Source: Eubacteriales bacterium
GTDB taxonomy: Bacteria > Bacillota > Clostridia > Oscillospirales > CAG-272
Direction of reading: 5' to 3'
DNA: 64,000 bases
Assembly: GCA_045580835.1 (NCBI GenBank)
Contig: JAZNOM010000091.1
Coordinates: 1,552-65,551, forward strand
In this document: positions 679 through 22,231 of the stretch, piece by piece
Layout of the letters: every line of letters starts with the position of its first letter
Numbering within the stretch: position 1 is the stretch's first letter
Position numbers and translations under genes: made by a program
The notes under the pieces: generated by a model
Seen by the model: only the letters and a program-made list of their open reading frames with translations
Database searches by the model: none
What the model was told of the DNA's origin: nothing

Positions 679-1654
679 TCATATATCCATTCTTCACCCA
701 ACCAAGCTTGCGGAAGGTGAGGTCAAACGCAAGGGTGAGCAGTGCAGGCAGCACAAAGTGCATCAGCAATACGATTATTGCGGTGTTTACAGATGCGCCC
801 ATTGCACCAAACGCGCCAAACTGACCTACAAGACCGGACGTGCCCATACCTGCGCCGGTGGATGTGTTTGTCATGCCGAGCAATGCAGTGGATATGGGAC
901 CTAAAATTGCCGATGCAAGAGTGGGCGCAAGCCAGATTTGCGGACGTTTTAAAATGTTGGGGAACTGGAGCATGGAAGTGCCGATGCCCTGCGAGAGTGC
1001 GCCGCCAAAGCCGTTTTCGCGAAAGCTTGCCGCCGCAAAGCCTATCATCTGGCAACAACAGCCGACACATGCGGCACCTGCCGCAATGCCGTCAATGCCA
1101 ATCGAAATGCAGATAGCCGCCGAGGAGATCGGCGCGGTGAGCGCCATGCCGATTACAACGGAAACGATAATTCCCATGGGGATGGGCTGCATGGCGGTTG
1201 CAGTGTTGATAAAGTCTCCGAGCCATTGCATAAACTCGTTTATGTAAGGACCTACAAAGATACCCACAAAGCCGCCTGAAAGAATTGTCAGCGCGGGGGT
1301 AAGAATAATATCAAGCTTGGTTTTGCCGCATACAAGGCTGCCAATCTCCACGCCGATAACCGCGGCAATGTACGCGCCGATAGGGCCGCCGAGTGCGTAG
1401 CCGAGGGCGCCCGTAACAGTGCTTGTGAAAAGCACGAGCGATTTTGCGCCAAGCGAATAAGCAATTGCAACGCCGATTGCGCTTCCGATAACGGGACTTG
1501 ATGCACCGATTTGTCCCGTGAATTTTGCCAGAAATGACAGAGCGGGAATGCTTGAAAGCTGATTGAAAATCGTGCCAATAATAAGTGAGGCGAAAAGACC
1601 TTGCGCCATTGCGCCCATCGCCTTTATAAAATAGCGGTCAAAAAAGTTTTTCAA
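668..1654 (-). CDS. PTS EIIC-like / PfoR-family membrane protein
   Basis: Hydrophobic 328 aa with MA.GLFASLIIG, TAPISSAAI, QGIGTSMLQFPNI and GAGMGTSGLVG. TTG start preceded by AAGGAG. Confidence 0.8.
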   Translation of the reverse strand: MKNFFDRYFIKAMGAMAQGLFASLIIGTIFNQLSSIPALSFLAKFTGQIGASSPVIGSAIGVAIAYSLGAKSLVLFTSTVTGALGYALGGPIGAYIAAVIGVEIGSLVCGKTKLDIILTPALTILSGGFVGIFVGPYINEFMQWLGDFINTATAMQPIPMGIIVSVVIGMALTAPISSAAICISIGIDGIAAGAACVGCCCQMIGFAAASFRENGFGGALSQGIGTSMLQFPNILKRPQIWLAPTLASAILGPISTALLGMTNTSTGAGMGTSGLVGQFGAFGAMGASVNTAIIVLLMHFVLPALLTLAFDLTFRKLGWVKNGYMKIN

Positions 1655-1756
1655 GTTTTTTCTCCTTTTTTGAAATATTGTGGTTTATTTTAGCACAACG
1701 TACTTGAAAATTCAATAGTAATTAGTTAAACTATATACATAAACGGAGGACTTTTT

Positions 1757-2788
1757 ATGGATTTGCAATCGACTTATGACTTTAGCAGTGCAAAGAAGGC
1801 GTTTTCGCGCATAGGCATTGCGCTTGTTATGTTTTTTATATCTACATTCGCGGCGCAGCTTTTATTTGAGGCGGTATGTGTGTTGTTGTTTCCCGATTTT
1901 TTAAAAAACGGAATCACGCCGCAAATGGCGGTGATTATTTCTTCGGCAACGATGTACCTTGTAGGTGTTCCCGTATTTTATCTTTGTGTGCGCTCGCTCG
2001 ATACCTTTGAGGGGGATAGCGCAAAATGCTCGGTTAAAACGCTTTTCGTTGCTTTTGTTATTTCTTATGCGCTTACCTATCTCGGTCAGATGCTCGGCGA
2101 TGCGGCAACAGCGTTTATCTACAATACAATGAATATCAAGCTTGTTTCCGAGACGATTGAGATTATCAGACGGATTTCGTGGGTGGATGCGCTTGTCTTT
2201 TCGGTAATTATCGGACCGTTTTTTGAGGAGCTTATGTTCCGCAAGCTTATTATTGACCGCACGCGCGGATATGGCGAAAAGCTTGCGGTGATTTTTTCGG
2301 CGCTTATGTTTGCCTTTTTCCACATGAGCGTTCAGCAGTTCTTTTATACGTTTTTTGTAGGTCTGCTTTACGGATATCTCTATATAAGAAAAGGGAAACT
2401 TATATATTGTTGGGGGCTTCACGCTGCGTTTAATTTCTTTGGCGCTGTTGTGCCATTGCTTTTTACCGAGTTTGTGCCGGGCTATGACAAATTTCTTGAG
2501 CTTGCCATGGATGAAAGTGCATTTGAAGAACTTTATGCAATGGTTGAGGCAAATCCCGTTGCCTACGGTGCGGTAGCTTGCTACAGCTTTTTGACGATAG
2601 TAATGTCATTTGTGGGTATTTTCTGGTTCGCAAAGCGTTATCGCACCATGCGCTTCGAGCGCGCGGCGTTTGAACTGCCAAATGACAGCGAGGCATCAAC
2701 CGCGTTTGTAAATGTCGGTGTAATTTTGTTTATTGCCTTTGTAATAGCATACCCGTTTTTAGGTGTAGTATTGTCTGCATTTATATAA
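1757..2788 (+). CDS. CPBP (CAAX protease/Abi) family intramembrane metalloprotease
   Basis: Motifs EELMFR, FAFFH and LHAAFN; multiple TM helices; GGAGG RBS. Confidence 0.88.
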   Translation: MDLQSTYDFSSAKKAFSRIGIALVMFFISTFAAQLLFEAVCVLLFPDFLKNGITPQMAVIISSATMYLVGVPVFYLCVRSLDTFEGDSAKCSVKTLFVAFVISYALTYLGQMLGDAATAFIYNTMNIKLVSETIEIIRRISWVDALVFSVIIGPFFEELMFRKLIIDRTRGYGEKLAVIFSALMFAFFHMSVQQFFYTFFVGLLYGYLYIRKGKLIYCWGLHAAFNFFGAVVPLLFTEFVPGYDKFLELAMDESAFEELYAMVEANPVAYGAVACYSFLTIVMSFVGIFWFAKRYRTMRFERAAFELPNDSEASTAFVNVGVILFIAFVIAYPFLGVVLSAFI

Positions 2789-2791
2789 TAA

Positions 2792-2815
2792 AAGCGCTTG
2801 GAAAACCAAGCGCTT
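2792..2815 (+). terminator. Hairpin after CPBP gene
   Basis: AAGCGCTTGG-AAAA-CCAAGCGCTT. Confidence 0.6.
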
Positions 2816-3055
2816 CAGAGTGCTGACAAACACGTCAGATCGCAAGCAAGAAATAAAAGCGAAGGGAATAAATAGAAATAATTTTTCACTTTGTGTAAAA
2901 AACAAAATGCGGCAAGGGCTTTTTAAGCCCTTGCCGTTACTTGCTTTTTCGGATTTTTATCTCTACCGTACACATGTACGCCGACGAAACAAAAATCCAA
3001 AATCTGCCTGCGTTTCTCATCCTCTGTTCAGCCTGATGACTTTGTCATCAGGCTG
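2816..3055. mobile_element. 240-bp non-autonomous element (MITE) with IS1182-like ends
   Basis: Left end CAGAGTGCTGACAAA and right end TTTGTCATCAGGCTG (12/15 inverted match). It has internal hairpins and sits between two terminators. Confidence 0.5.
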
Positions 3056-3079
3056 AAAACCGCTCTTTCGAGCGGTTTT
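3056..3079 (-). terminator. Rho-independent terminator of malic enzyme operon
   Basis: AAAACCGCTC-TTTC-GAGCGGTTTT. Confidence 0.7.
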
Positions 3080-3094
3080 CATTATGTATACAGT

Positions 3095-4267
3095 TTAGAT
3101 TCTTGCAACGCCGCCGTCTTTTGCAGCCTTTACAACCGCTTCGGCAACTACCTTTGCAACATCCTTATTGAGCGCAGAGGGGATAATGTTATCCTCGCGA
3201 AGCTCGCTCTCGGGAATAAGGGATGCAATTGCATAAGAGGTTGCAACCTTCATCTCCTCGGTAATCTGGGAAGCACGGCAGTCAAGCGCACCGCGGAAGA
3301 TACCGGGGAATGCAAGTACGTTGTTGATCTGGTTGGGGAAGTCGCTGCGTCCGGTGCCGACAACTCTTGCACCTGCGGCAAGTGCTTCGTCAGGCATGAT
3401 TTCGGGGGTGGGGTTAGCCATGGGGAATACGATAGCATCCTTTGCCATGGAAGCAACCATTTCCTTGGAAACGATGCCGGGTGCGCTTACACCGATAAAC
3501 ACATCTGCGCCCTTCATTACTTCTGCAAGGTTGCCCTTTTCCATCTGACGGTTGGTAACCTTTGCTATATCTTCCTGTGCGGGGTTGTTCTCTTCCTTAC
3601 CCTCATAAATTGCGCCAAAGCGGTCAACCATAACGAGGTTCTTAAGACCGAGGTTGAGAAGGTGACGGCCGATAGAAATACCTGCACTGCCTGCGCCGTT
3701 GATAACTACCTTAATCTCATCAATCTTCTTGCCAACTACCTTGAGGGCGTTGATAAGAGCGGCTGCACATACGATAGCGGTGCCGTGCTGGTCATCGTGG
3801 AACACGGGAATATCGCAGATTTCCTTAAGTCTTTTTTCGATTTCAAAGCAACGGGGAGCAGAAATGTCCTCGAGGTTGATACCGCCGAAAGAACCGGAAA
3901 TGAGATAAATTGTGCGAACGATTTCGTCTACATCCTTGGAGCGAACGCAAATCGGAAACGCGTCAACGTCTGCAAATTCCTTAAAGAGTGCGCACTTACC
4001 CTCCATAACGGGCATACCTGCCTCAGGACCGATATCGCCGAGACCAAGCACTGCAGTACCGTCGGTGATAACTGCAACAAGGTTGGAGCGGCGGGTAAGC
4101 TCAAATGATTTCCAATAGTCCTTCTGAATTTCAAGACAAGGCTGTGCAACACCGGGGGTGTACGCTACAGACAAATCGTGACGGTCATTTACCTTTGCGC
4201 GGGAAATAACCTCAATCTTGCCTTTCCAGTCATAGTGAGCCTGCAAAGATTCCTGTTTGATATCCAT
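3095..4267 (-). CDS. NAD(P)-dependent malic enzyme
   Basis: [43 protein letters not shown] and [11 protein letters not shown]. Confidence 0.96.
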
Positions 4268-17156: not shown

Positions 17157-18274
17157 CTTTGATTATATCCGTCCTCGTAAATCTTTTCCACCTTGCCTGT
17201 CATAATCTTGCCGGTCAGGCGGCAGATGTATTTGGAGTATGCAAACTTTGACATTTCTTCAAGCTTCTTGGGATTTGCCATGATTTTTTCAATACTGTCT
17301 GCAAGGTTTGGCGCGCTCTTTTGCGGAATGATATATCCGTTCTTATCATTTTCGATAATATACGAGTTGCCGCCGTAATTTGTGGCAATGGCAGGCTTCG
17401 CAAGGCTCATGGCTTCGATAAGTGCCATGCTTGTAGCCTCAGTGCCAAACGAGCAGTTGATTATAACATCCATTACCTCAATATACGGCGCCACATCACC
17501 GACAAAGCCTGCAAAAATAACGCTGTCTGAAAGTCCAAGTTCCTCGGTTTTTGCCTTGAGCATTCCCTCGGTTGTACCCGTGCCGATAATAAGCACCTTG
17601 AGGTTCTCACATCCGCGGTCACGCATGATTTTCGCTGCCTCGATAAGATAAATGTGTCCCTTTACCTCCTCAAGACGCGCGGACATGCCTACCACAAAAT
17701 CGCCCTCTTTTATTCCGAGAGCCGCGCGAAGTTCATCCGCTTCATCCGCGCTCACCTCTCGAAGCGGCTCTGCGCCGTTGATAACAACCTCAATCTTCTT
17801 GGGATTCGCACCCATTGCGGTAAGGTTTTCCTTGGTGGACTCCGAAACTGCAATCATCTGCGTAGAAAGCGTGTTGTTAATGAATCCGCACACATTGCGA
17901 AGCGGAAAGCGCGTAAGTATCGGGCGTGGTGCAAAGGTTGAGTGTCTTGTGTGAATACGCACCTTTACTCCTGCCAAAAATGCTGCTATGCGAGCAGAAA
18001 ACGCCGCGTGTGTATGGACTATGTCCGGCTTTTCTGCCTTAAAAATCTTTGTATACTCGCTTATTGCGCCAAGGTCGAGCGACTTGTCCGCGCCTCCCTC
18101 GGTGCAAATGTAGGTAAAGCCAAGCGAGTCGATACGCGGTATAAGCTTACTGCCGTAAGGAAGCACTACTTTTACATCAAAGCGACTGCGGTCAATGTTG
18201 CGAAGCGTGGTAAGCAGCACCGTGCCTGCACCGCCGATATTTGTATCGCTTATAACATGAATTACTTTTATCAT
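17141..18274 (-). CDS. GT4 glycosyltransferase
   Basis: IGGAG, PDIVHTH, RLEEVKG and EATSMALIEAM. Confidence 0.9.
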   Translation of the reverse strand: MIKVIHVISDTNIGGAGTVLLTTLRNIDRSRFDVKVVLPYGSKLIPRIDSLGFTYICTEGGADKSLDLGAISEYTKIFKAEKPDIVHTHAAFSARIAAFLAGVKVRIHTRHSTFAPRPILTRFPLRNVCGFINNTLSTQMIAVSESTKENLTAMGANPKKIEVVINGAEPLREVSADEADELRAALGIKEGDFVVGMSARLEEVKGHIYLIEAAKIMRDRGCENLKVLIIGTGTTEGMLKAKTEELGLSDSVIFAGFVGDVAPYIEVMDVIINCSFGTEATSMALIEAMSLAKPAIATNYGGNSYIIENDKNGYIIPQKSAPNLADSIEKIMANPKKLEEMSKFAYSKYICRLTGKIMTGKVEKIYEDGYNQRCQKQ

Positions 18275-19797
18275 TGTTTATTTCTCCTTGAAAGTGCGCG
18301 TATTTCGGTAGGCGAAAGCAGTAGTAAAGCCATGCCGTAAACGGCAATTCCCACACCACCTACCAAAATCACGCGAAGGATATCAATATCTGTATTTAAA
18401 CTTGCGTTGACAAGGTATACACAACCGCTCATTGCCGCAGTTGCAATGACGGATTTTACAATGTCCAGAAAGTCTTTGTACGAAAACAGAGCGCCGTCTC
18501 TCGAAAGCAAAATATAGTTCAGTGCGGCACAAATCGCAATGGTTATCGAAGATGCAACCGCAATACCGATAAAGCCTACGGCATCCACCAAAACGGTTAC
18601 GATAATAATATTTGCCACGATTGCAAGCATTGAAGCAAGCATCGGCGCTTTAACCTTTTGCTTTGCGAAAAAGAGTTTTGTAAGAACCTCGTTTGCTGAC
18701 ATGAACGGTATTCCGAGCGCGAGATATTTAAGCACCGATGCGGTCATTTCAGCATCGTATGCGGTAAACTCACCGCGCATGTAAATTGCGCGCGTGATAG
18801 GCTCTGCGAGGAAGAATATACCTGCAGCAAGCGGTATCATAAGGTAGAGCAGAATCTTAACCGATGAAGCCGCAAACGTGCGTGCGCCGTCGCTATCGCC
18901 CTCCGCCTCTGCGCGCGACAGACGCGGAAACAAAAGATTGGTTGCGACAAACGAGAACACGCCTACAATGATAATGTAAAGGCGGTTTGCGTAGTTGACC
19001 ATGGTTATGCCGCTGTCCCCTTCAAAACCCGATGCAAAACGGGTGTTGATAACATTGCACACAGGCTGAAGCCATGAGCAAACGAGAATAGGCAATGCCA
19101 TTTTCATTGAGCGGATGATATGTTCGTCTTTGAAATTAAGCGTTGGCTTAAATCTAAAGCCCAGCTTGTGCGCAGACGGTGCCTGAATTGCCGCCTGCAA
19201 AAACCAGCCGATTACAAGTGCTACAGAAAGCCCCCACACATCAAAGCGGTCGCTTAACGTGTAGAAATAAAGCACCATAACAAGGTTTGAAACAAGGCTC
19301 ATTATCGCCGGAAGCGTGTACTTTTCAAAAGATTGCAGTATTCCTACATAACAGTATGCAATTCCCGTAAAAATTATCATCGGGAACATAATTCGGCTGA
19401 GTTCGGTGGCAAATTCCTTTACCGTGTCTGACACATCGGGGGCAAGGAAAGACACAAGCGGATATGAAAAAAGCATGCCGAGCACCGAGATTATAAGCGT
19501 TATAACAAGGATAAGATTAAAGTAGCGGTTTGCAAATGAAAATGCTTTTTCTTTGCCCTCTTTAACCATAAGCTCGTTGAAAATCGGAATAAATGCCGCA
19601 GTTACAACGCCGCCCAGTGCAAAATCAAAAAGCGTTATCGGGAGTCGGCTTGCCGCCTCATACGCGGCAGCACTGACACCCGTACCAAAAGTGGAGGCAA
19701 GCAGCATATCGCGAAGCAGTCCAAGCGCCTTGGAAAGCAGCGTTACAAACACCATAAGCAGCGCCGTAGATGCAATTTTCTTTGTCGCGTTTGCCAT
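18271..19797 (-). CDS. murJ: Lipid II / polysaccharide flippase MurJ (MviN)
   Basis: SKALGLLRD, AFIPIF, YANRL, IYMRGEF; ~14 TM helices. Confidence 0.92.
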   Translation of the reverse strand: MANATKKIASTALLMVFVTLLSKALGLLRDMLLASTFGTGVSAAAYEAASRLPITLFDFALGGVVTAAFIPIFNELMVKEGKEKAFSFANRYFNLILVITLIISVLGMLFSYPLVSFLAPDVSDTVKEFATELSRIMFPMIIFTGIAYCYVGILQSFEKYTLPAIMSLVSNLVMVLYFYTLSDRFDVWGLSVALVIGWFLQAAIQAPSAHKLGFRFKPTLNFKDEHIIRSMKMALPILVCSWLQPVCNVINTRFASGFEGDSGITMVNYANRLYIIIVGVFSFVATNLLFPRLSRAEAEGDSDGARTFAASSVKILLYLMIPLAAGIFFLAEPITRAIYMRGEFTAYDAEMTASVLKYLALGIPFMSANEVLTKLFFAKQKVKAPMLASMLAIVANIIIVTVLVDAVGFIGIAVASSITIAICAALNYILLSRDGALFSYKDFLDIVKSVIATAAMSGCVYLVNASLNTDIDILRVILVGGVGIAVYGMALLLLSPTEIRALSRRNKQ

Positions 19798-19855
19798 AGT
19801 ATACCTCCTTTTGTAAAGTCTTAAAAGTAATTATATGCGAGTGTAAAGTCAGTGG

Positions 19856-20118
19856 CTAAAAATCATTCTTTTTTTGAATTGCATCAAGTTGTTCTTGAGT
19901 TAACTCAACATATCTATTGTCCGCATACATTGTTTTTGTTGTATCAGCTATTGCTTTAGATATTCTTTCTACATCAATTTCGTTATGAAATAGCGGTTCA
20001 TAGTTGGAATTTTGTGCAACCATTATAAACGAATCACCTTCCCAATCAATAGCGAAAGATGTCTTGATTTTTGTTCCATCAGTTACATCAAAAAATTCCT
20101 GTCGTCATTATTCAACAC
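19856..20118 (-). pseudogene. Frameshifted/truncated small gene (third cassette)
   Basis: 82 open codons (…EFFDVTDGTKIKTSFAIDWEGDSF…QKKNDF*) end at TAG 19856. The RBS GAGGTG and GTG at 20118 are out of frame with them. Confidence 0.5.
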
Positions 20119-20130
20119 GTGCACCTCTAT

Positions 20131-20150
20131 AATCCGTGACCGGGTTGGAT
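20131..20150. repeat. Cassette-boundary repeat, copy 1
   Basis: AATCCGTGACCGGGTTGGAT, 3 nt past the stop of the 20154-20585 gene. Confidence 0.8.
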
Positions 20151-20153
20151 TAA

Positions 20154-20585
20154 TCAATGTCCTCGCATATCGAAGATAGAACAAGGAGATTCTTTAGAGA
20201 ATTCTAAAATATAACAATTTTGATTACTGTTAAACGTTTCTTCGTTAAAGTTTAAATTCATTATTTCCATGACCAAGGTACTATGACCATTTTTCTCAAC
20301 ATCATGTACCGAACTAATATTTACAATTTCATTTTTAATATCGGTTTCGGTCAAACTTGTTTCGACCAAAATGGCAACATATAAATCGGTATGATTTCCC
20401 TTCCCACTACTGTTGCCGCAAGCGTTGACTACTTGCAAAATGTTTATTCCCGATACATCCTCTATGCCATCTACAATTTCTTCTCTATAAACGGAACAAG
20501 CAACATCATTTATCCAATAAGGCAAACAAAGAAGCATACCAACAACTAGCACGCTCAAAACGCTTATAATTAGTTTTTTCTTCAT
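20154..20585 (-). CDS. Hypothetical membrane-anchored/secreted protein (cassette 2)
   Basis: 143 aa with N-terminal hydrophobic helix, GGGGGA RBS, AT-rich. Confidence 0.7.
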   Translation of the reverse strand: MKKKLIISVLSVLVVGMLLCLPYWINDVACSVYREEIVDGIEDVSGINILQVVNACGNSSGKGNHTDLYVAILVETSLTETDIKNEIVNISSVHDVEKNGHSTLVMEIMNLNFNEETFNSNQNCYILEFSKESPCSIFDMRGH

Positions 20586-20677
20586 TTATGTATTCCCCCA
20601 ATCTTAAGAGCTGAAAGAATCGCACAATTGATTCGATATAAGCCACCAAGCAGATTTAGCAAAATTCAACTTTTAAA

Positions 20678-20697
20678 AATCCGTGACCGTGTTGGAT
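20678..20697. repeat. Cassette-boundary repeat, copy 2
   Basis: AATCCGTGACCGTGTTGGAT (19/20 identical to copy 1), 9 nt past the stop of the 20707-21126 gene. Confidence 0.8.
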
Positions 20698-20706
20698 GTG
20701 ATTTAT

Positions 20707-21126
20707 TCACCTCATAACGTATAAATCAATGTCTATATGAGTTCTAGTTTCATGACAAAAATCGATAATCTCCAAGTCTGGACCTAATGCAGGCGTAGAA
20801 TTATATGAATATATTTCAGGTACAATCTCTATATAGTATTCAACATCGAATTTCGCTTTGATTTGCTTTAATACTTCGATTTTAGGCAAGAGCGCAGAGA
20901 TTGTTTGCTTAATTTGTCTTTCAGTTTCTACATCATAATCTTCGCACTTACCGTAATCCCAACTATCAAATCCATATTGAGTTCCATTTTTTCTCAAATC
21001 TGTGCTTCTCCAAGACTTAAACGGTTTCAACCCTAGCATCTCGGTAATAACATCAGGTTCAAATGTACCACGTATTGAAAAATATGTATAACACGTATTC
21101 TCTTTTTTACGTAGTTTCTTAAACAT
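20707..21126 (-). CDS. DUF4279-like protein (cassette 1)
   Basis: YFSIRG.FEPDVITEMLGLKP...SW...IIDF...IDIDLY pattern; GAGGTG RBS. Confidence 0.75.
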   Translation of the reverse strand: MFKKLRKKENTCYTYFSIRGTFEPDVITEMLGLKPFKSWRSTDLRKNGTQYGFDSWDYGKCEDYDVETERQIKQTISALLPKIEVLKQIKAKFDVEYYIEIVPEIYSYNSTPALGPDLEIIDFCHETRTHIDIDLYVMR

Positions 21127-21164
21127 TTAGGAATCACCTCAAGAACTCAAATAAATTATAAAAC

Positions 21165-21193
21165 ATTATATCATAAAACTTACCAAAAGGCAA
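21165..21193 (-). promoter_or_regulatory. SigA promoter reading into the cassette array (and possibly murJ)
   Basis: TTGCCT-N17-TATAAT with TG extension. Confidence 0.7.
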
Positions 21194-21250
21194 CACCGCG
21201 CGCTTTCAAACTTTTGTGCAAAATATTTTCAAAAATTTGTGTTTTTCTAC

Positions 21251-21279
21251 TTGACTTAACAAAAAATCTGTGATATACT
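21251..21279 (+). promoter_or_regulatory. SigA promoter of tRNA-Pro
   Basis: TTGACT-N17-TATACT with TG extension. Confidence 0.75.
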
Positions 21280-21295
21280 TTACAGGTGCTTAAAT

Positions 21296-21371
21296 CTGGG
21301 TGTGGCGCAGTTGGTAGCGCGCTACCTTGGGGTGGTAGAGGCCGCAAGTTCAAGTCTTGTCACTCAGACCA
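21296..21371 (+). tRNA. tRNA-Pro (anticodon GGG)
   Basis: Acceptor CTGGGTG/CACTCAG-A-CCA, D arm GCGC/GCGC, anticodon arm CTACC-TTGGGGT-GGTAG, T arm GCAAG-TTCAAGT-CTTGT; 76 nt. Confidence 0.97.
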
Positions 21372-21372
21372 A

Positions 21373-21411
21373 GTAAAAGAGGAACACTTTTGTGTTCCTC
21401 TTTTACTTTTT
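21373..21411 (+). terminator. tRNA terminator
   Basis: GTAAAAGAGGAACAC-TTTT-GTGTTCCTCTTTTAC followed by T run. Confidence 0.8.
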
Positions 21412-21420
21412 CTTGGGATA

Positions 21421-21624
21421 GATAAACTTGAACTCGCGGTCATCGACCATGCCACGTGCCACGTAGTGGCTACTTGGGGTGGTAGGGTGAGCGAGCAAAA
21501 ACGATTGAGTATCGTTTTTGCGAAGCGTGTCACGAAAATAAGAAGTTGTCATCGCCGAGCGTATCGAGGCGATGTACAACGACTATATTTTCGGAAGGGC
21601 CGCGCATACATCAAGTCTTGTCAC
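21421..21624. other. Structured tRNA-Pro-derived element (antisense T-arm copy + split tRNA 3' copy + hairpins)
   Basis: 21426-21441 is antisense to the tRNA variable/T arm. 21469-21485 copies the anticodon arm (1-nt deletion). 21598-21603 and 21611-21624 copy the variable loop and T arm/acceptor. Confidence 0.65.
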
Positions 21625-21727
21625 ATGACTAAAACTATTCACCAAAATTGAATAATACAAGCAATATTGTAATTAAATCCGTTTATTCACATATACTTTT
21701 ACAAATTCTATTACGAAAGGCGGATTT

Positions 21728-22231
21728 ATGAAACGTTCAATTTCTCTTTGGCAATTCTTTGGTTTTCTTTTTACCTCGGTACTTGGAACACTGCTTCATT
21801 TTCTCTATGAGTGGAGCGGCGAAAGTGCACTTGTTGCACCGTTTGCAGCAGTAAACGAGTCTACATGGGAGCATATGAAAATCCTATTCTTCCCAATGCT
21901 TATTTTTGCAATTATAGAAAGCCGACTGTTTAAAGAATATCAGAATTTTTGGTGCGTCAAACTGAAAGGTATTTTGCTTGGGCTTTTGCTGATTCCCGTA
22001 ATTTTTTACACATATAACGGCGCTATCGGAATCTCGCCCGACTTTGTAAACATAGCAATCTTTTACGTAGTTGCGGCAATTTCATATGTTTATGAAACAA
22101 AACGGTTTAAATCAGGCTCGCAAAACTGCAATCAAGCGGCGGCAATCGGCACGCTTTGCATTATCGTGCTTTTGTTTGCAATTTTCACGTTTGTTCCGCC
22201 TGCGCTGCCGCTATTCATATCTCCCGTATAA
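21728..22231 (+). CDS. DUF6512-like membrane protein
   Basis: GTLLHFLYEWSG, VNESTWEHMKILFFP; five TM helices. Confidence 0.75.
   Translation: MKRSISLWQFFGFLFTSVLGTLLHFLYEWSGESALVAPFAAVNESTWEHMKILFFPMLIFAIIESRLFKEYQNFWCVKLKGILLGLLLIPVIFYTYNGAIGISPDFVNIAIFYVVAAISYVYETKRFKSGSQNCNQAAAIGTLCIIVLLFAIFTFVPPALPLFISPV

Follow-up and report, generated by a model that had tools for sequence, protein, structure and literature searches.

In the window analyzed here (the whole 64,000-nucleotide stretch taken from contig JAZNOM010000091.1 of an Eubacteriales draft genome), two small AT-rich genes and a gene remnant, all read from the minus strand, separate the lipid II flippase gene murJ from its promoter. 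Each of the two genes is followed by a copy of the same short repeat, and a first-pass annotation had taken this layout for an integron-like array in which the repeats bound the units of an undescribed gene-capture system. With moderate confidence, we favor another reading, namely, that positions 19837 to 21164 are a strain-specific, horizontally acquired orphan-immunity mini-islet lodged in the murJ leader, and that the repeat is a junction scar rather than part of a capture system. What is new here is that the promoter is murJ's own, that the repeat is bipartite and resembles the end heptamers of attC, the cassette site of integrons, and that the third open reading frame (ORF3) is a 5′-truncated gene.

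Insertion of a low-GC islet into the murJ leader

The host genome (G000) is a 2.2-Mb draft of 143 contigs, 89% complete, in which the locus lies on a 69-kb contig. The islet has a GC content of 33.7%, compared with 46.4% for murJ and 45.6% for the window; gene by gene, the values are 33.3% (ORF1), 33.6% (ORF2), and 31.6% (ORF3 region). Orthologs of murJ occur in 18 of the 19 genomes of the genus, G000 included, and among the congeners examined the insertion is confined to G000. Alignment with the closest relatives, G004 and G002, revealed that the counterparts of 21400–21149 and 19809–19700 are contiguous there, the ~1.34 kb between them being absent. Among the 13 other genomes with both landmarks, the gap between tRNA-Pro and the murJ start measures 155 to 171 nt in nine, 267 to 366 nt in three, and 832 nt in G017, with additional, noncoding DNA upstream of the promoter; in G000 it reaches 1,498 nt. 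When the whole interval was searched as DNA against 100 relatives, its first 147 nt alone matched at the murJ locus. The ORF1 part was matched at 64 to 70% identity at other loci in four genomes, and ORF2, ORF3, and the repeat sites gave zero matches. The foreign origin of the cargo, as first proposed, is thus borne out by its low GC content and its absence from this locus in every congener examined.

The insert is bordered by a 7-bp duplication, ATATAAT (21171–21165 and 19836–19830), and comprises 1,335 bp together with one ATATAAT copy. The left copy is the native −10 box of murJ, present once in the relatives and in an empty-site contig. The latter was found among public contigs of four runs from four studies, which we mapped onto positions 19000 to 22000: contig 17 of run X3 (449 nt), from a very close strain, joins 19812 to 21167 via 21 other letters and shows 9 differences in 279 nt on one side (19534–19812) and 1 difference in 149 nt on the other (21167–21315). 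Variation was limited, in these contigs, to the block being present or absent in its entirety, and the breakpoints fell within the −10 box and the leader, away from the repeat. A comparison of the tRNA-Pro/murJ interval, from which gain or loss of cassettes at the repeat had been expected, therefore returned nothing but this 1.34-kb unit. The 547-bp circle, or joint between the two repeat copies, that had also been sought was found in none of the contigs of the four runs; contigs drop rare variants, so this does not show its absence and cannot exclude rare circles. The insert had no match in plasmid and phage collections. A transposon comprising the whole insert was considered in view of the 7-bp duplication and discarded, since terminal inverted repeats were absent both by eye and in a repeat search.

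That the locus reflects an assembly artifact (a chimeric contig join in a metagenome-assembled genome), or the repeat a chance similarity, is highly improbable. The genome is a 143-contig draft, and no single public contig among those mapped spans the whole islet, which leaves some room for such an explanation. However, contigs bridging repeat copy 1 (X1, X3, X5), copy 2 (X2, X3), and the ORF3-murJ junction (X1) keep the window arrangement each time. The assembly is sound because these contigs come from independent runs and different studies and all agree; shuffled sequences, described below, dispose of the chance similarity.

The promoter ahead of the islet (21165–21193, minus strand) consists of a −35 hexamer TTGCCT (21193–21188), a 17-nt spacer, and an extended −10 element TGaTATAAT (−10 box at 21170–21165). 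TTGCCT-17-TATAAT was the top-scoring promoter-like match in a promoter scan, and a promoter of the same TTGCCT type stands ~30 to 40 nt before the murJ ribosome binding site (RBS) in G004, G002, G010, G012, G013, G006, G017, and G014. The housekeeping promoter postulated upstream of the block was therefore confirmed, and its conservation in congeners identifies it as murJ's own. That the block has one promoter is less certain. The right ATATAAT copy (19836–19830), with TAGCCA 17 nt upstream, makes up a second site (TAGCCA-17-TATAAT, 19858–19830, minus strand) that also scored as promoter-like and is placed directly before murJ (18271–19797, minus strand; Pfam MurJ, E value of 6e-88), the native downstream gene; what follows this ATATAAT copy resembles the native murJ leader. 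The −35-like hexamer of the site overlaps the stop codon of the ORF3 remnant, i.e., the insertion regenerated a promoter-like site. In this layout, the islet is predicted to be transcribed constitutively from the strong murJ promoter, and murJ expression would then depend on read-through or on the −10 box restored at the right edge. By entering the interval between a conserved housekeeping promoter and the essential gene behind it, the foreign genes would have gained constitutive expression, with the murJ −10 box regenerated.

A bipartite repeat closing the first two modules

Two 20-mers, ATCCAACACGGTCACGGATT and ATCCAACCCGGTCACGGATT, which are 19/20 identical and 547 bp apart, begin 9 nt and 3 nt past the TGA stop codons of ORF1 and ORF2, respectively, as the first-pass annotation had described. 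With up to three mismatches allowed, the window contains these 2 matches, where 0.02 would be expected; two or more were reached in 0 of 100 shuffles, which excludes chance similarity. A repeat search recovered the same pair, and the flanks of the two copies do not align. Each 20-mer opens with ATCCAAC and is followed, 7 or 14 nt after its end, by GTTGAAT, so that the repeat takes the bipartite form ATCCAAC-N20/27-GTTGAAT. Copy 1 measures 34 nt (20664–20697, minus strand; 20-mer at 20697–20678, heptamer at 20670–20664) and copy 2 measures 41 nt (20110–20150, minus strand; 20-mer at 20150–20131, heptamer at 20116–20110). No third site exists at the right end of the islet. The exact pair ATCCAAC-N15-45-GTTGAAT occurs at two places in the G000 genome, both of them junction sites, and in 20,000 shuffles of the insert, two random 30-nt flanks had in common a heptamer complementary to the first arm, with at most one mismatch, 15 times.

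The likeness of these ends to attC suggests an alternative, in which the sites are miniature attC-like sites of a rare integron- or rAID-like cassette system and a tyrosine recombinase encoded elsewhere moves ~550-bp immunity cassettes behind a host promoter. We regard it as quite unlikely. In excerpts of PMC3053210, attC sites are bounded by RYYYAAC (inverse core) and GTTRRRY (core) and range from 57 to 141 bp. ATCCAAC fits the former and GTTGAAT the latter, in the order and orientation relative to the upstream gene seen in attC; the earlier statement that the site lacks this core was wrong. The confinement of the exact heptamer pair to the two sites also fits a cassette system, as does a parse of copy 2, made by eye, into 7+5+7+3+7+5+7 = 41 nt. 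Its size does not: at 34 and 41 nt the sites are longer than the 20 bp first seen but indeed far shorter than attC, and copy 1 has no inner inverted repeat, that of copy 2 being 3 bp. The missing third site at the right end of the islet and the breakpoints of gain or loss, which lie away from the sites, further weaken it. The same applies to folding. The inverted arms span 4 to 6 bp around an 11-nt loop, and single-stranded DNA folds of the four strands (−1.1 to −4.9 kcal/mol; z scores of 0.82, 0.20, 1.10, and −0.83) were no better than those of shuffles, 39 to 178 of 200 shuffles folding at least as well.

A cis-acting role would be another explanation. The repeat could then act in RNA processing or stability between cistrons, or as an operator bound by a protein, with the same 3′ element brought or acquired by each module; this is unlikely, too. 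Both copies occupy a fixed place just past a stop codon, and ordinary operons of the genome have intergenic repeats as well: the dnaN-recF-DUF370-gyrB operon on contig C50 carries a ~75-nt intergenic element in three copies (the third partial), one of 31 local noncoding repeats found in G000. On the other hand, the RNA folds of the two islet copies differ and neither beats shuffles (z scores of −0.55 and 0.69), leaving no common predicted structure, and neither a terminator-like site (GC-rich stem plus T tract, terminator scan) nor an Rfam match was detected at either copy. A genome-specific regulator should also have more than two sites, and the genome shows no more. The absence of a terminator agrees with the first-pass annotation, which had judged the site not to be a typical one. 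A tRNA fragment was likewise dropped as a candidate, since ARAGORN and Rfam yield tRNA-Pro only and the T-stem is missing by eye. The C50 element (C50:6600-8300), which served as a control, combines a perfect hairpin, GTACTTTCTTAAAAAGAAAGTAC, with a conserved tail behind it.

The third gene bears on all these readings. The ORF3 remnant (19856–20104, minus strand) retains the last 82 codons and the stop codon of a gene whose family members normally have 114 to 124 aa. Its frame (20104–19859, 82 codons) has 33 relatives at an E value of ≤0.001 among 1.84 billion representatives, full-length members being P0016, P0021, and a 114-aa gene (G062:C45) from an AT-rich cluster of small genes. When five relatives were compared by tblastn with 19800–20720, homology started at 20104–20095, which corresponds to residues 34 to 46 of the three full-length relatives, and the N-terminal part was not detected in any frame of this interval. 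ORF3 therefore misses its first ~33 to 45 codons together with any in-frame start, and the frame that does carry a start codon (GTG/TTG, 20118–20113) ends after 11 codons. It is thus a 5′-truncated remnant and not the frameshifted gene first reported. The family has no Pfam domain, and the junction site is absent from the one full-length homolog locus inspected.

The homology of ORF3 sets in 6 nt beyond the GTTGAAT of copy 2, which ends at 20110. Judged from sequence, this coincidence is the best evidence that the site may be a recombination junction; a cis-acting element leaves it unexplained, and a start so close to a core-like heptamer would suit a cassette system as well. In the reading that we favor, ATCCAAC-N20/27-GTTGAAT would close modules 1 and 2 as a bipartite junction sequence, left as the footprint of the recombination that joined the modules by short-site or short-homology joining, either here or in a donor. 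It would not be the site of an active or widespread capture system.

The motif and candidate recombinases elsewhere

The first-pass annotation had anticipated that the motif would cluster 3′ of small genes, but no copy in a comparable context was found in the G000 genome, in the 100 relatives, or in the collections scanned, an absence that also counts against a cassette system. With up to four mismatches, G000 yielded four matches; two are the sites, and the others carry three and four mismatches. The three-mismatch copy lies on contig C30, 1.6 kb from a tyrosine recombinase within a small integrated element beside eno, and was rejected as an att site: it falls within a coding frame of the opposite strand, and chance would give ~0.4 such matches by our own estimate. 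The element itself (C30:1-4800) contains, with names assigned by eye, a P-loop assembly-type protein, a replication-type protein, the tyrosine recombinase, and small regulators.

Among the 100 relatives, searched with up to two mismatches, there were 10 matches in eight genomes, all with two mismatches and all in open frames of at least 80 aa. When scanned for exact copies of the 19-mer, ~185,000 species genomes yielded 12 single matches, metagenome contigs 16, and viral contigs 1, a count close to our own chance estimate for 18 specified bases. Their hosts are unrelated and mostly GC rich, the matches fall essentially all within long frames, and none of the 28 examined has GTTGAAT within 40 nt downstream. 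One metagenome match (L061) is probably intergenic, ~25 nt before the start of an oxidoreductase gene, and is a single copy without GTTGAAT. A pattern reduced to the arms, with up to one mismatch each, was not enriched either (177 matches versus 138 for the reversed control).

An integrase was sought with the integron profile TIGR02249. Its best score in G000 was 45 bits against a cutoff of 265, and 0 of 101 genomes (G000 plus the 100 relatives) exceeded the cutoff. The weak matches mark five generic tyrosine-recombinase loci on contigs C48 (two loci), C11, C30, and C71, any of which is compatible with a cassette system served from elsewhere in the genome, but the 69-kb contig of the locus itself has no tyrosine-recombinase match. 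Two Y1-transposase loci (Y1_Tnp on C135 and C21) lack a motif copy even with up to four mismatches. The predicted recombinase or Y1 transposase flanked by the same site did not materialize in this incomplete genome, as none of these genes carries it.

Gene content and related loci

ORF1 (20707–21126, minus strand) encodes a 139-aa protein of the DUF4279 family (Pfam PF14106, E value of 3e-19). DUF4279 corresponds to FdL-Imm5, an immunity family of polymorphic toxin systems according to excerpts of PMC9424270, and in excerpts of PMC13304343 it is the proposed immunity partner for an Rhs-Ntox33 effector of Salmonella. Homology supports a putative immunity role for ORF1 alone. ORF2 and ORF3 match no family; the immunity-like cargo of the initial description is borne out for the first gene at least.

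ORF2 (20154–20585, minus strand) encodes a 143-aa membrane-anchored protein of a rare conserved family without a Pfam domain, with 10 homologs at 45 to 62% identity in 5.8 billion proteins. Its AlphaFold (AF2) model (pLDDT of 90.1) has a long N-terminal helix (residues 2 to 42) followed by a small sheet domain, and the family alignment displays an invariant Cys and a GNSSGTGNHTDLYV-like motif. Foldseek comparison with the PDB gave no match at an E value of ≤0.001 (best, 0.21), the protein atlas yielded unnamed clusters only (scores of ≤0.84), and relatives were not found in viral contigs. Homologs at seven other loci (in G002, G461, G612, G553, and G598) are stand-alone genes in differing surroundings; 0 of 7 have the junction site, and in four of the contexts read by eye the gene is followed by a GC-rich hairpin of ordinary type. 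A conserved element of at least 17 nt, TTGCATCTAAACCTTAT (up to two mismatches), lies upstream of small accessory genes in G002 (L025:2445), G612 (L092:1383), and G598 (L100:1885), and G000 has one two-mismatch match to it.

DUF4279 is sporadic, present in 20 of 401 family genomes (G000 included; one match reported per genome). The 20-mer occurs at 0 of the 19 other loci. Together with the seven ORF2 loci and the full-length ORF3 locus, all devoid of the site, this argues against a cassette system. Direct repeats of at least 16 nt were present at 4 of 20 DUF4279 loci and in 82 of 593 random 3.3-kb windows of the G000 genome. Junction repeats as a general feature of DUF4279 loci are thus unsupported, and this lack of enrichment weighs on the cassette system as well. 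A repeated intergenic sequence is not by itself a mark of gene capture, because random windows and the dnaN-gyrB operon also carry such repeats.

G002 offers the nearest parallel. Its DUF4279 gene, at a locus other than murJ, is 66% identical to ORF1 and belongs to an islet between a cyclophilin gene and a convergent gene (L025, G002:C98:41737-45134, ~1466-3100) that also holds two unrelated small genes, of 144 and 145 aa, as well as a terminator and a remnant of 11 codons. Each gene is preceded by a junction repeat, TGTCGAA-N3-TGKCGAAAGGA, which differs in sequence from that of G000 and overlaps the RBS of each following gene; AATGTCGAAWG has four copies in the 2.4-Mb G002 genome, three of them in the islet. 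This placement looks regulatory rather than recombinational and speaks for a cis-acting role, yet a related islet with a junction repeat of its own is also what a cassette system would predict. In the strongest form of that idea, the 34- to 41-nt sites would be working miniature attC-like sites of an in-trans cassette system outside the classical integron hosts, with the G002 repeat as a second instance; we consider this version very unlikely.

Other repeated elements adjoin DUF4279 genes. In G056 (L113, G056:C45; 875, 1937-2120, 3159-3340), a ~180-nt repeated element that opens with a bidirectional terminator hairpin, CCTCTTTTGTCTACCTGACAAAAGAGG, flanks a DUF4279 module and a neighboring nucleotidyltransferase gene pair, and the same hairpin core flanks the DUF4279 gene of G167 (L120).

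The neighbors of the G000 islet are murJ, tRNA-Pro, and a DUF6512 gene. tRNA-Pro(GGG) (21296–21371; ARAGORN and Rfam) is on the plus strand, a correction to the first-pass annotation, and is therefore divergent from the murJ promoter and the islet. A terminator with a 17-bp stem follows it (21371–21459), and the minus strand of the same interval gave a subthreshold match to the Streptococcus small RNA SpF25 (29 bits versus a gathering score of 48; E value of 0.095) that is probably due to chance. In G017 (L039, G017:C2, locus 132-963), the 832-nt spacer between tRNA-Pro and the murJ promoter contains a pair of similar blocks with promoter-like sequence, TTGACA(T/A)TCTGCAAAGAATCG(A/G)G... A region that may be structured comes after each block, and these could be genes for small RNAs.

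Weight of the evidence

The first-pass annotation had proposed four checks of its capture system: a scan for the motif in the genome and its relatives, a comparison of the tRNA-Pro/murJ interval, a search for a recombinase flanked by the site, and detection of a 547-bp circle. All four went against it, two of them on weak data, and both outcomes that it had named as contrary were observed: the motif appears nowhere else in a comparable context, and the breakpoints are not at the repeat. The idea that these sites bound the units of an undescribed gene-capture system is therefore not upheld.

Several points weigh against the mini-islet with a junction scar that we prefer. A 19/20 repeat and a shared heptamer at two gene ends exceed the order that random illegitimate joining predicts, and the end heptamers fit RYYYAAC and GTTRRRY in the attC orientation relative to the genes. 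The distinct junction repeat of the G002 islet hints at a recurrent islet-building process. The collection scans were exact-match only and would miss a site family conserved in structure and variable in sequence, and in a draft of this quality (143 contigs, 89%) a recombinase or further copies could be unassembled.

As it stands, the locus would be one more small islet of the orphan-immunity type, with the bipartite junction sequence as its sole unexplained part. Integron-like stockpiling of immunity genes is so far known from integrons and Bacteroidales rAID. If the sequence did recombine, such stockpiling would extend to a new lineage with much smaller sites, but two copies in one genome and none elsewhere are too little evidence to carry the claim of a new stockpiling system.

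Comparison with known systems

Orphan immunity ("polyimmunity") islets share with this locus small, co-oriented, low-GC accessory genes, one of them in an immunity family, and a sporadic distribution. No toxin gene adjoins the islet, as judged from its flanking genes (murJ, tRNA-Pro, and a DUF6512 gene). The differences are that an immunity domain is recognized in ORF1 alone, ORF2 and ORF3 belonging to rare families in which none is recognized, and that placement within the leader of an essential gene is unusual.

In excerpts of bioRxiv 10.1101/471110 and PMC12247911, the defining features of rAID-1 are a XerD-like recombinase, short genes that are co-oriented and low in GC, and repetitive motifs between the genes, the former source setting at least two codirectional downstream genes with a GC content of ≤41%. 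At 33.3, 33.6, and 31.6%, the codirectional genes of the islet fall below this value, and two copies of a local motif stand between them, set beside the rAID motif by description only. Low-GC co-oriented genes of immunity type with a repeated intergenic sequence would match three rAID-1 descriptors in the former source, which accords with a cassette system. By contrast, the 5′ XerD-like tyrosine recombinase is absent from the 69-kb contig (the rAID recombinase was not itself queried), the upstream neighbor being tRNA-Pro, and two genes plus a remnant with two repeat copies compare with up to 31 genes in rAID-1 as excerpted.

Integron arrays, including attC clusters without an integrase, resemble the locus in having genes without a detected upstream promoter of their own behind a single promoter, and in sites that begin with RYYYAAC and end with GTTRRRY. 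They differ in their sites, the excerpted attC description giving 57 to 141 bp with two binding-site pairs and an imperfect palindrome against 34 and 41 nt here. The islet lacks a stable hairpin, IntI, and attI; it stands behind the murJ promoter conserved in the genus rather than a Pc of its own; and no site closes its last "cassette," which is a truncated gene. As in palindrome-associated elements of the IS200/IS605 type, the cargo is bounded by a short, directly repeated sequence that has small inverted arms, and Y1 genes are present in the genome, but the arms of 4 to 6 bp around an 11-nt loop form unstable folds and the Y1 loci on C135 and C21 have no motif.

The locus is a member of neither integrons nor rAID-1, because the recombinase is missing and the length and fold of the sites lie outside the attC range. 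Among described systems, those nearest to it are the orphan-immunity islets and, in terms of how they work, Bacteroidales rAID-1 and integrons.

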